The notes under the pieces are model-generated. The model ran no database searches and was not told the DNA's origin. It saw only the letters and a program-made list of their open reading frames with translations. A program made the translations under genes and the position numbers. From positions 32,001 to 96,000 of the IMG/VR virus record IMGVR_UViG_3300028591_000007: a stretch of DNA of 64,000 nucleotides. The stretch is one strand, 5' to 3'. Position 1 is the stretch's first letter, and each line of letters begins with the position of its first letter. Below, piece after piece: positions 52,988 through 54,602 of the stretch. The DNA is from a virus. Its lineage: Duplodnaviria > Caudoviricetes.

Positions 52988-53011
52988 ATATATTCTCCTT
53001 TCTAAAAATAT

Positions 53012-53129
53012 CATTCAAGATAAGGATCTGCACCTTATATGATATAAAGTTTTGCTAAGATTATTCTTAATGGTTTTATATATCTTTAACCCTATCACTA
53101 AAAACGTCTACCTATTCCGCCACCTGAAT
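53012..53129 (-). ncRNA. tRNA-like RNA with long insert replacing the anticodon arm (copy A)
   Basis: ATTCAGG/CTTGAAT acceptor, TGGCGGAATAGGTAGACG D-region, ATAAGG-TGCAGAT-CCTTAT T-arm. Confidence 0.75.
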
Positions 53130-53191
53130 GATGATTGCTTACTCATGAGGGACATACCACTTTCAGCTTGAGGCCCATATTCATTTATATA

Positions 53192-53249
53192 GCGCACCAA
53201 AAGCTCCTCTGTGCTTCAACTGCCATTGTGTCCACGGCCATCCGTGCGC
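53192..53249 (-). ncRNA. Structured RNA motif, copy 2 (GGAU-hairpin-AGUUGA)
   Basis: GCGCAC/GTGCGC closing stem; GCCGT/ATGGC hairpin; AGTTGAAG. Confidence 0.55.
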
Positions 53250-53258
53250 ATAAATTTG

Positions 53259-53442
53259 TATTCAAGAAATAATTCATACAATTTCACCATCTATTCAACC
53301 CCTACGTTTTACCAAATATGGTTCTAGTTTACTTATTCGTTAGATGCACCCTTTTCGGGTATTAAGTGACATTACTGCCTCAGCCTTCAACTGCCGTAGG
53401 CGACATCCAGCATCTTGACCATATGAATTAATTTCTTGAATA
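53259..53442 (-). ncRNA. ~185-nt structured RNA containing copy 1 of the GGAU-hairpin-AGUUGA motif
   Basis: TATTCAAGAAAT(T)AATTCATA / TATGAATTATTTCTTGAATA closing stem; AGATGC/GCATCT inner domain; ACCC-GAAAA-GGGT hairpin. Confidence 0.6.
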
Positions 53443-53444
53443 AA

Positions 53445-53517
53445 CAGCCCCTACTGGATTCGAACCAGTGAATAACGGTGTCAAAGACCACCGCCTTCAC
53501 CACTTGGCTAAGGGGCT
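53445..53517 (-). tRNA. tRNA-Gln(TTG)
   Basis: AGCCCCT/AGGGGCT acceptor, GTGGT-CTTTGAC-ACCGT anticodon arm, ACTGG-TTCGAAT-CCAGT; no encoded CCA. Confidence 0.9.
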
Positions 53518-53529
53518 ACAAAATATCAT

Positions 53530-53952
53530 TTATCGAATTATTTCTTCAAATCTAAACTTTTGCTTTATGTTCGGATATTTTTCTTTGTCCACTTCACTTA
53601 CAAATTCATTATATGGACGAACATATAATTTAAAATCTCCATACATAGCACGATATATAACCATTGATGATTGATCTAAAGTATTAATAGCAAAATCTTC
53701 TATTCTATATATGTATTTATTTTGTGCTTTTTCTGCATCTGATAATGTTTCATATTTAAAATGCTTTACTATACTTCCGACTTGTATCATTTTTTCTCCT
53801 TTTGGTTCTTCATATTCCATATTAAGCCATTCTTCCATACAATCAATATCATCTATGTAAGCTGATCTAAGTGCAAGGATTTGTGGCTGGATTGATCTGC
53901 TCCAATATATTTCCTTGCCAAATATCTTTTTAAATTTTTCTCTATTTGTCAT
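53530..53952 (-). CDS. DUF1653-like domain protein
   Basis: C-term KHFK..Y....A.....MVIYRAMYG...YVRPY.EF.SEVD.EKYP...QK.RFE. Confidence 0.75.
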   Translation of the reverse strand: MTNREKFKKIFGKEIYWSRSIQPQILALRSAYIDDIDCMEEWLNMEYEEPKGEKMIQVGSIVKHFKYETLSDAEKAQNKYIYRIEDFAINTLDQSSMVIYRAMYGDFKLYVRPYNEFVSEVDKEKYPNIKQKFRFEEIIR

Positions 53953-54196: not shown

Positions 54197-54329
54197 CATT
54201 CAGGGTAAAGATTTGCACCTTACACAAGATACCAGAACTAATATCTCTCGCCATTTATACGCCAATCTACGGCTCAGTCTGTTCAGATTACTCTGCTTGC
54301 TATGCGTCTACCTATTCCGCCACCTGAAT
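54197..54329 (-). ncRNA. tRNA-like RNA with long insert replacing the anticodon arm (copy B)
   Basis: ATTCAGG/CCTGAAT acceptor, same D-region as copy A, GTAAGG-TGCAAAT-CTTTAC T-arm, unrelated ~80-nt insert. Confidence 0.75.
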
Positions 54330-54336
54330 GATTTAA

Positions 54337-54408
54337 CAGCCCCTACTGGATTCGAACCAGTGAATGCATCTGTCAAAGAGATGTACCTTGCCGCTTGGTG
54401 AAGGGGCT
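54337..54408 (-). tRNA. tRNA-Gln(TTG)
   Basis: CATCT-CTTTGAC-AGATG anticodon arm; acceptor and T-arm identical to 53445..53517. Confidence 0.92.
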
Positions 54409-54416
54409 ACAAAATA

Positions 54417-54602
54417 TCATTTATTAATCTGCTCAATATGTTTAGTTGTTGTAACACTATCAGATAATACCTTACCCGCCATAATAGATATACATAGCAA
54501 AGAAAGATTATAAGATGATATTTTATGTATACCATGATAGTGTTCCCAACATATTTTATACATATCAATTTCATCTGGTATTTCAATCACTATTTTTGAC
54601 AT
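54417..54602 (-). CDS. Hypothetical protein
   Basis: 61 aa, KIVIEIPDE start, GGAGAGG RBS. Confidence 0.6.
   Translation of the reverse strand: MSKIVIEIPDEIDMYKICWEHYHGIHKISSYNLSLLCISIMAGKVLSDSVTTTKHIEQINK

Follow-up and report, generated by a model that had tools for sequence, protein, structure and literature searches.

Phage tRNA clusters are increasingly viewed as counter-defense and recoding loci, and the non-tRNA RNAs encoded there are almost unexplored. Examples of functional tRNA-operon spacers are the 3'ETS-leuZ sponge RNA of E. coli and, from the tRNA cluster of T4, the stable "species 1 and 2" RNAs. A minimal HDV-like fold is found in theta ribozymes, which are located no more than 5 nt from the ends of phage tRNAs (PMC10879173). 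Together with type I hammerhead ribozymes and purine-riboswitch-type aptamers, these are the systems with which we compare here two related RNA motifs from a phage tRNA locus.

The DNA studied (hereafter, the window) spans 64,000 nt and corresponds to bases 32001-96000 of an IMG/VR phage record that is 135.7 kb long and has direct terminal repeats. All genes around the motif region are located on the minus strand, and two paralogous cassettes are present, each consisting of a tRNA-Gln(UUG) and, after it, a tRNA mimic that lacks an anticodon and has a Leu-like D arm:

53445..53517, minus strand: tRNA-Gln(UUG), upstream neighbor of the motif region (ARAGORN and Rfam RF00005, 63.6 bits); CCA is not encoded
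53010..53130, minus strand: tRNA mimic, downstream neighbor, outside the motif; Leu-like D arm, atypical T arm, cargo in place of the anticodon arm
54408-54337, minus strand: second tRNA-Gln(UUG), in the parallel cassette (ARAGORN and Rfam)
54197..54408, minus strand: parallel cassette, comprising tRNA-Gln, 5 nt, and tRNA mimic, without the junction module

According to the preliminary description, two copies of an unrecognized motif lie between the tRNA-Gln and the mimic at 53 kb. Both copies were found on the minus strand, at 53415..53342 (copy 1) and 53249..53192 (copy 2) as read from the sequence, and have in common GGAUG, a hairpin, and then GGCAGUUGAAG. The pattern GGATG-N8-24-GCAGTTGAAG has exactly two matches in the window, and likewise in the whole phage record; two matches were obtained in none of 100 shuffles. 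The described conservation of junction strings between stems that differ and yet pair is also seen, as each copy is closed by six Watson–Crick pairs of unrelated sequence and carries a hairpin between the two conserved strings. The paralogs keep the junction strings and differ in P1, P2, L2, and L3; copy 1 is, judged by its sequence, a diverged paralog of copy 2. We conclude that the motif copies are real and represent cores of small portable non-coding RNA modules behind rumen-phage tRNA genes.

The gap between the tRNA-Gln and the mimic is ~310 nt at 53 kb vs. 5 nt at 54.3 kb. The parallel cassette had been described as lacking a single ~310-nt insert; the absence stands, and the single insert does not, being composed of a 191-nt element with copy 1 (element B) and a ~118-nt module with copy 2 (module A), each of which is missing from some near-identical relative. 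Three near-identical pairs of filled and empty loci are available:

Filled L289 vs. empty L288: insert of 116 nt
Filled L251 vs. empty L286: insert of 122 nt
Filled window vs. empty G001: insert of 191 nt (element B)

In all three pairs the insert starts at the tRNA-Gln discriminator or a few nucleotides after it: the 116-122-nt unit begins at most 5 nt past the discriminator base, and the 191-nt insert directly after the discriminator. G001 (also L146, with the locus given as L168 as well) is the one close relative in IMG/VR that carries the motif, in the order tRNA-Gln, 4 nt, copy 2 identical to that of the window, and mimic, copy 1 and its stem being absent. When the window is aligned with L168, the two differ by a clean indel that starts right behind the tRNA discriminator, and the flanking sequences are 95-99% identical. 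The two copies lie in two independent insertions, and both modules are optional and portable.

The copy-2 family, as sampled here, comprises 15 distinct sequences from at least 12 assemblies, all of them ruminant-gut phage contigs. True homologs of copy 2 were recovered by a tighter pattern on JGI metagenomes, and further ones via look-ups of neighboring genes in the ENA and Logan assemblies; natural variants, including those of copy 1, came from Logan contigs of four ruminant-gut runs. Scanning of databases with the shared strings yields chance matches, as these strings are too short: an exact scan of IMG/VR with the 15-base shared pattern produced chance matches only, mostly in coding DNA, and tighter patterns on IMG/VR produced nothing beyond the close relative L146. 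Two scans of GTDB, with one genome per species, gave nothing or chance matches in coding sequence, and tRNA-Gln was the sole part matched in a phage database search. Among 80 loci of related phages around the neighboring helicase gene, the motif is present in one and absent from 79. Weak covariance-model matches in L242 and L286 were rejected as false, falling into a ribosome-binding-site region and the D arm of a tRNA mimic. Exact-protein look-ups for the two ORFs flanking in the window gave no match. Contigs of two metatranscriptome libraries cover the module; since contigs cannot show transcription or RNA ends, they are not counted as evidence. Among the sequencing runs, only those with contigs aligned to the window were used for habitat.

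The features of module A are as follows, all in window coordinates:

53191..53250, minus strand: three-way junction of copy 2, the first 60 nt of module A; 15 distinct homologs
53249-53244 with 53197-53192, minus strand: P1 of copy 2, with three covarying pairs
Junction strands of copy 2, minus strand: J1/2, GGAUG; J2/3, AGUUG; J3/1, UUG
53238-53234 with 53226-53222, minus strand: P2 of copy 2, with wobble-compatible changes and some mismatches
53233-53227, minus strand: L2 of copy 2
53216-53213 with 53204-53201, minus strand: P3 of copy 2, invariant
53161..53190, minus strand: A/U-rich linker, predicted unpaired, almost invariant (columns 61-90 of alignment A5)
53145..53160, minus strand: domain-2 hairpin with a 4-bp stem and an 8-nt loop
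53154-53150 (UGUCC) with L2 positions 53233-53229 (GGACA), minus strand: loop–loop helix
53133..53144, minus strand: 3' tail, up to the tRNA-mimic start; right indel boundary in L289 vs. L288 and L251 vs. L286

The copy-2 fold spans ~106 nt, with the three-way junction P1–P3 and a downstream hairpin, whose loop pairs with L2 and locks the core. Five helices, namely P1, P2, P3, the 4-bp domain-2 hairpin, and the 5-bp loop–loop helix, were tested on the 120-column alignment A5. The fraction of paired cells is 97.7%, compared to 32-51% with partners slid, and six pairs change on both sides, a count reached in none of 500 shuffles (mean 1.8). Three of the compensatory pairs are in P1 (GC/CG, AU/GC/UA, and CG/UA), two in the loop–loop helix, and one in the domain-2 stem. 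The loop–loop helix is paired in 14 out of 14 sequences that reach domain 2, the 15th, L268, ending before it; the changes are G–C to A–U in L290 and L294, A–U to G–C in L294, and U.G in L284. In L258, a U–A pair of the domain-2 stem is replaced by A–U, in a stem that is longer and otherwise different. In copy 2 from run X19, the P1 pair 53245-53196 is changed from A–U to G–C.

Not all helices are equally well defined. As P3 never varies, it escapes the covariation test, and because of C.A or A.C mismatches (L290, L294, L268) only the three inner pairs of P2 are solid, the outer ones being imperfect. A low-depth variant from run X2 (one contig, 2.9x) has an A.C mismatch in the loop–loop helix and a broken P3 pair, which either count against the fold model or reflect a sequencing error. 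In contig L250 (L250:789-850), the two strands of P1 are of different types and only four out of six pairs form; the probable cause is a chimeric assembly or recombination between two variants that occur together. Within the copy-2 family, GGAUG, P3, and A-UUG-AAG (with G or A as its second base) are invariant, as is most of the A/U-rich linker after P1, although this invariance of the junction may partly reflect short divergence, given a narrow family whose sequences are at least about 85% alike. Minimum-free-energy folding alone gives a weak signal (z about -1.4).

Alternative pairings did not fit the same data. Pairing of the Shine–Dalgarno-like L3 with the C-rich loop was dropped for the L2 pairing, as L3 varies freely and one end pair breaks in L250 and L290. 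Mutual pairing of the junction strands (GAU with GUU) would require different registers in the two copies, and other helices in domain 2 (CUCA with UGAG, GCC with GGC) are lost among the homologs. Separately, in the unpaired invariant UUGAA of J2/3 (53388-53392 and 53217-53221), UUG followed by A repeats the letters of the anticodon and base 37 of tRNA-Gln(UUG), the usual upstream neighbor of the module; this may be a coincidence, as the module is also found behind tRNA-His and tRNA-Leu.

Element B, which carries copy 1, has the following features:

53251..53444, minus strand: element B, the 191-nt insertion carrying copy 1, absent from the close relative G001/L168
53422..53443, minus strand: closing stem, 5' arm, pairing with 53259-53278
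53259..53278, minus strand: closing stem, 3' arm, pairing with the 5' arm
53342..53415, minus strand: junction of copy 1, a reading of the sequence, with the strings common to copy 2
53415-53410 with 53347-53342, minus strand: putative P1 of copy 1
53404-53401 with 53396-53393, minus strand: putative P2 of copy 1, loop CCUA
Junction strands of copy 1, minus strand: J1/2, UGGAU; J2/3, AGUUG
53387-53385 with 53366-53364, minus strand: putative P3 of copy 1
53348..53360, minus strand: extra hairpin P4, with four pairs and a GAAAA loop
53281..53341, minus strand: domain B; its UAGG (53304-53301) is complementary to the CCUA loop of copy 1 (53400-53397)

The ~20-bp stem reported to enclose copy 1 is real, pairing 53443-53422 with 53278-53259 with one bulge. 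Its natural variants mostly stay paired: a double substitution shifts the bulge 53431/53432, and U.G occurs at 53425 and 53273; in one variant there is a C.A mismatch at 53427. P4 has two independent compensatory changes of C–G to U–A, in X19 at 53359/53349 and in X3 at 53358/53350, with an additional change to U.G at 53357 in X3. The core of copy 1 is unchanged in three natural variants, and no change is listed for domain B among three. Since there is no variation in P1 and P2 of copy 1, both are assigned by homology, and the same applies to the junction as a whole, because it is not found by the covariance model and because thermodynamic folds of element B favor other inner pairings. The model in question, R1, was built from copy-2 relatives and did not detect copy 1 even with filters off. 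By this homology, the core strings of copy 1, which agree with those of copy 2 in identity and order, would form a junction closed by a separate P1, and the CCUA loop may pair with UAGG in the loop of a hairpin downstream, mirroring the loop–loop helix of copy 2.

Rfam 15 contains no family matching the motif, either at gathering scores or at E up to 10, where tRNAs alone were hit, and our literature searches retrieved no paper describing it. The check by covariation proposed earlier turned out positive, as homologs and natural variants do covary. Taken together, the absence of an Rfam match and the covariation uphold the initial view of a structured RNA of no known family, in which the junctions are conserved and the stems vary yet pair; the functions suggested there (ribozyme, ligand binding, or protein binding) are candidates. 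Beyond that description come the contact of each junction with a downstream hairpin through a loop–loop helix (by analogy for copy 1), the separate insertions, and the portability of units placed immediately behind tRNA 3' ends. The module counts as new in that no Rfam 15 family and no paper describing it were found. The statistics and the breadth of the finding are limited by the family being narrow and confined to ruminant-gut phages related to the source phage.

Other assignments of the module were considered and rejected. Coding by small ORFs in the linker and domain 2 was rejected: most homologs lack the GUG start, L261 lacks the stop, and L258 has a different frame. Module A features no sigma-70-like promoter or terminator-like site, nor was a promoter-like or terminator-like site found between the two modules and the tRNA and mimic genes; TATATAAAT, considered as a -10 promoter element, has no sigma-70-like match. 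The bacterial, relaxed, and intron modes of ARAGORN find nothing tRNA-like on either copy; its most permissive mitochondrial mode makes only three spurious calls, one of them ([142,210], counted within the stretch searched) overlapping part of the copy 2 junction. The Rfam tRNA model recognizes true tRNAs only, and L2 has neither U33 nor a purine at position 37.

The modules are co-oriented with the phage tRNA and tRNA-mimic genes, and across the contexts of the copy-2 family, P1 starts 3-5 nt past the discriminator of several tRNA-Gln variants, tRNA-His (L258), tRNA-Leu (L268), or a truncated pseudo-tRNA (L284). What follows downstream can be a tRNA mimic, a "closing-stem" RNA, or unrelated ORFs; in L290 and L294, an ORF with its ribosome-binding site comes directly after the module. 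Other modules in these operons sit 1-8 nt from the tRNA end, and as they are packed equally tightly, the spacing may not be motif-specific and does not prove coupling to the tRNA end by itself. No adjacent partner gene tracks the module: over about 5 kb, it is the sole difference between L289 and L288.

Our tentative preference is that the module is a stable small RNA, released by tRNA-processing enzymes and acting in trans through its folded junction. Since the module begins within 5 nt past the tRNA discriminator, a cut by RNase Z of the CCA-less tRNA would produce its 5' end, and a cut by RNase P at the following tRNA mimic would produce the 3' end, whereas in element B the 3' end would be made by RNase III in the 22-bp stem. 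The freed RNA would be stable, and its invariant junction may serve as a pocket or a surface for a partner. The most likely partner would be a protein that handles or attacks tRNA, making the RNA an accessory or counter-defense factor; the counter-defense suggestion comes from the neighbors, namely, several tRNA-Gln variants, mimics with interchangeable cargo, and genes for an RLIG1-like RNA ligase and, in relatives, a Tad4-family member. With its ~106 nt, invariant junction, near-invariant linker, and covarying clamp, the fold is more than a stabilizing hairpin.

A compact pseudoknotted fold with an invariant core suits a ribozyme equally well. The module may be a new self-cleaving ribozyme. 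It would cut itself in the invariant linker, at its 5' edge, or close to that edge, and so trim tRNA 3' trailers or separate the packed operon RNAs; it would resemble in role, not in fold, the HDV-like theta ribozymes behind phage tRNAs. We regard this as unlikely, although it is the main rival and the most interesting one. The genomic niche is theta-like, with P1 3-5 nt past the discriminator of three tRNA isotypes; the size, invariant junction nucleotides, covarying helices, and loop–loop clamp are typical of small ribozymes; portable elements are also commonly associated with ribozymes, and the two window copies flank a ~166-nt segment. On the other hand, no ribozyme family of Rfam 15 scores with E relaxed to 10, the sequence neither threads into the HDV fold nor matches the hammerhead core (CUGANGA, GAA), and RNase Z, RNase P, and RNase III could perform all the processing required. 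New ribozyme classes are rare among novel RNA motifs. A broader version, in which the junction-plus-kissing-loop RNA founds a new class of catalytic RNA, self-cleaving or both cleaving and ligating, and joins the processing of tRNA 3' trailers to precise placement behind unrelated tRNA genes, we consider quite improbable.

With a similarly low probability, the module could act in cis as a stability or processing element, that is, as a structure which, left at the 5' terminus after RNase Z with no more than about 5 unpaired nucleotides, shields the downstream RNA (mimic, closing-stem RNA, or mRNA) from 5'-end-dependent nucleases or guides tRNA 3' maturation. 5' stem-loops are known to act as RNA stabilizers. 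The linker to the tRNA end is short and constant, in L290 and L294 the module is placed like a 5' UTR, and the existence of empty sites agrees with a dispensable element. However, a simple hairpin would do this job, and the junction conserved in both paralogs, the almost invariant linker, and the covarying loop–loop helix argue for a more specific role; moreover, copy 2 of the window is intact despite lying 195 nt from the tRNA end.

The presence/absence polymorphisms, three in number, clean, located directly past the discriminator and with near-identical flanks, would also be expected of a selfish miniature mobile element, active at the DNA or RNA level, whose target is the 3' edge of tRNA genes, its fold serving its own spread or reflecting terminal inverted repeats rather than benefiting the phage. 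In the window, two different elements built on one core lie one after the other at a single site; element B ends in 22-bp terminal inverted repeats, possibly with a 5-bp direct repeat (TTTAT), and the module is found behind unrelated tRNAs (His, Leu, Gln). We nevertheless assign little probability to this explanation: each element has a single copy per genome; among the genes next to the module, no transposase, integrase, reverse transcriptase, or homing endonuclease was identified; module A lacks a clean target-site duplication or inverted ends; gain and loss may be explained by recombination in the conserved tRNA and mimic flanks; and inverted repeats do not account for the internal and loop–loop compensatory changes. 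Finally, that the similarity of the copies is a meaningless remnant of local duplication with helices formed by chance, as might be suspected from the weak folding z-scores, the failure of the covariance model to find copy 1, and the other pairings preferred in folding element B, is hardly credible given the covariation in four helices with slid-partner controls and shuffles, the core kept while the flanking stems were replaced, and the persistence of the unit in at least 12 assemblies behind different tRNAs.

The surroundings of the module deserve a description of their own. The neighborhood contains an RLIG1-like RNA ligase gene and tRNA mimics with swapped cargo; genes for the RLIG1-like ligase, WDGH, and nucleoside deoxyribosyltransferase recur near the tRNA cassette, and a precomputed Tad4-family match (PF25186) is located ~600 bp downstream of the cassette in relatives (L286:2984-3343, L287:2984-3343). 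The region looks like an accessory or counter-defense locus. The anticodon-less tRNA mimics (53010-53130, 54197-54332; L286:1005-1300; L123-L156) belong to a widespread phage and prophage family with exchangeable middles, recognized by the Leu-like D arm and a UGCA-type T loop. The mimic of L286 has the same cargo as the 53-kb mimic of the window and a different, still paired acceptor stem, and in Logan variants the cargo is swapped at the 53-kb locus itself. Some mimics have T-loop insertions (GGUGACAGAAAUUCAAAUCC and longer), e.g., L263:1690-1720, L288:2435-2465, L132, L147, L154, and L213.

A further, closing-stem module (CUUUAGGGGAUA... pairing with ...UAUCCCCUAAAG in a ~14-bp stem) occupies the slot behind tRNA-Gln or behind the junction module, at L286:2399-2475, L251:1130-1215 (minus strand), and L258:610-760 (minus strand), the stem of the latter being different yet pairing; it has no Rfam match. 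A tandem pair of pseudo-tRNAs (L284:1745-1888) separates a true tRNA-Gln from the junction module; their acceptor, D, and T arms resemble those of tRNA-Gln, and their anticodon arm is shortened. The small phage contig L258:1-3700, in which the module follows tRNA-His, has 11 tRNA genes and a tmRNA gene (tag ANNYAMAA). Directly before tRNA-Gln or an ORF, AAATGATATT is found in the window (53521-53531, 54412-54422) and in relatives (L286:2316-2326, L288:2192-2202, L294:1093-1103); it also overlaps the 3' end of the tRNA mimics.

The module is a ready-made test case, with a compact fold supported by covariation, an invariant core, a defined position, and clean presence/absence variants, and the natural filled and empty phage pairs are built-in controls on the use of an accessory structured RNA to the phage. 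Catalytic activity, or a role as a decoy that draws off a tRNA-directed enzyme, would make the module a new RNA-based tool in the phage–host conflict, and in the catalytic case, a ribozyme-based portable element of phage tRNA operons.

Among the known systems, theta ribozymes share with the module its small size (~60 nt for the junction alone), structured nature, location within ~5 nt of tRNA 3' ends, occurrence in gut phages, and association with several isotypes. Unlike in theta ribozymes, the terminal helix of the module closes a three-way junction, an external hairpin kisses L2, and the strand after P3 has no P1 partner. The HDV/theta nested double pseudoknot was rejected, as the near-invariant A(G/A)UUG after the P2 hairpin has no complementary strand on its 5' side, where the closing helix is preceded by 3-5 variable nt (UAA, UAG, UUA, CUAA, GCAG, UAAU, UGCGC). 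Covariation joins the 5' end of the module with its 3' end, unlike the P1 topology of HDV, and the catalytic cytosine expected at the first position of J4/2 has no counterpart, J3/1 being UUG or UAG, with no C, in 15 out of 15 sequences. Rfam HDV-type models did not match six homologous loci at E up to 1 or the window region at E up to 10.

The order of closing helix, junction strand, hairpin, junction strand, hairpin, and short junction is that of the type I hammerhead (RF00163), and in both cases the fold is stabilized by a tertiary loop contact. The strands themselves differ, with GGAUG instead of CUGANGA, AGUUG before AAG instead of GAA, and the A15.1–U16.1 context missing. A hammerhead core was rejected, since the extra AGUU before GAA in J2/3 would leave helix III with two pairs and Rfam gives no match at E up to 10. 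Purine-riboswitch-type aptamers likewise have a three-way junction closed by P1, conserved junction nucleotides, and a covarying loop–loop helix, but in the module L2 kisses a hairpin outside the junction rather than L3. The varying downstream neighbor, the lack of a terminator-like site or expression platform, the location in a non-coding RNA operon, and the lack of an Rfam match led us to reject a riboswitch aptamer. The remaining ribozyme and riboswitch families of Rfam 15, compared by covariance-model scores, gave no match at E up to 10.

The tRNA-operon spacer RNAs, like the module, are encoded between or behind tRNA genes; it, too, is expected to be a by-product of tRNA processing and may act in trans. 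We know of no junction-plus-kissing-loop fold reported for these spacers and of no sequence relation to the module, which, unlike them, is portable between tRNA contexts. We therefore propose a new family, defined by a P1-closed junction (GGAU, AGUUG-AAG) together with an L2 complementary to the loop of a downstream hairpin; both features are found, with covariation, in 14 sequences of the copy-2 type, and by inspection of the sequence (CCUA with UAGG) in copy 1.
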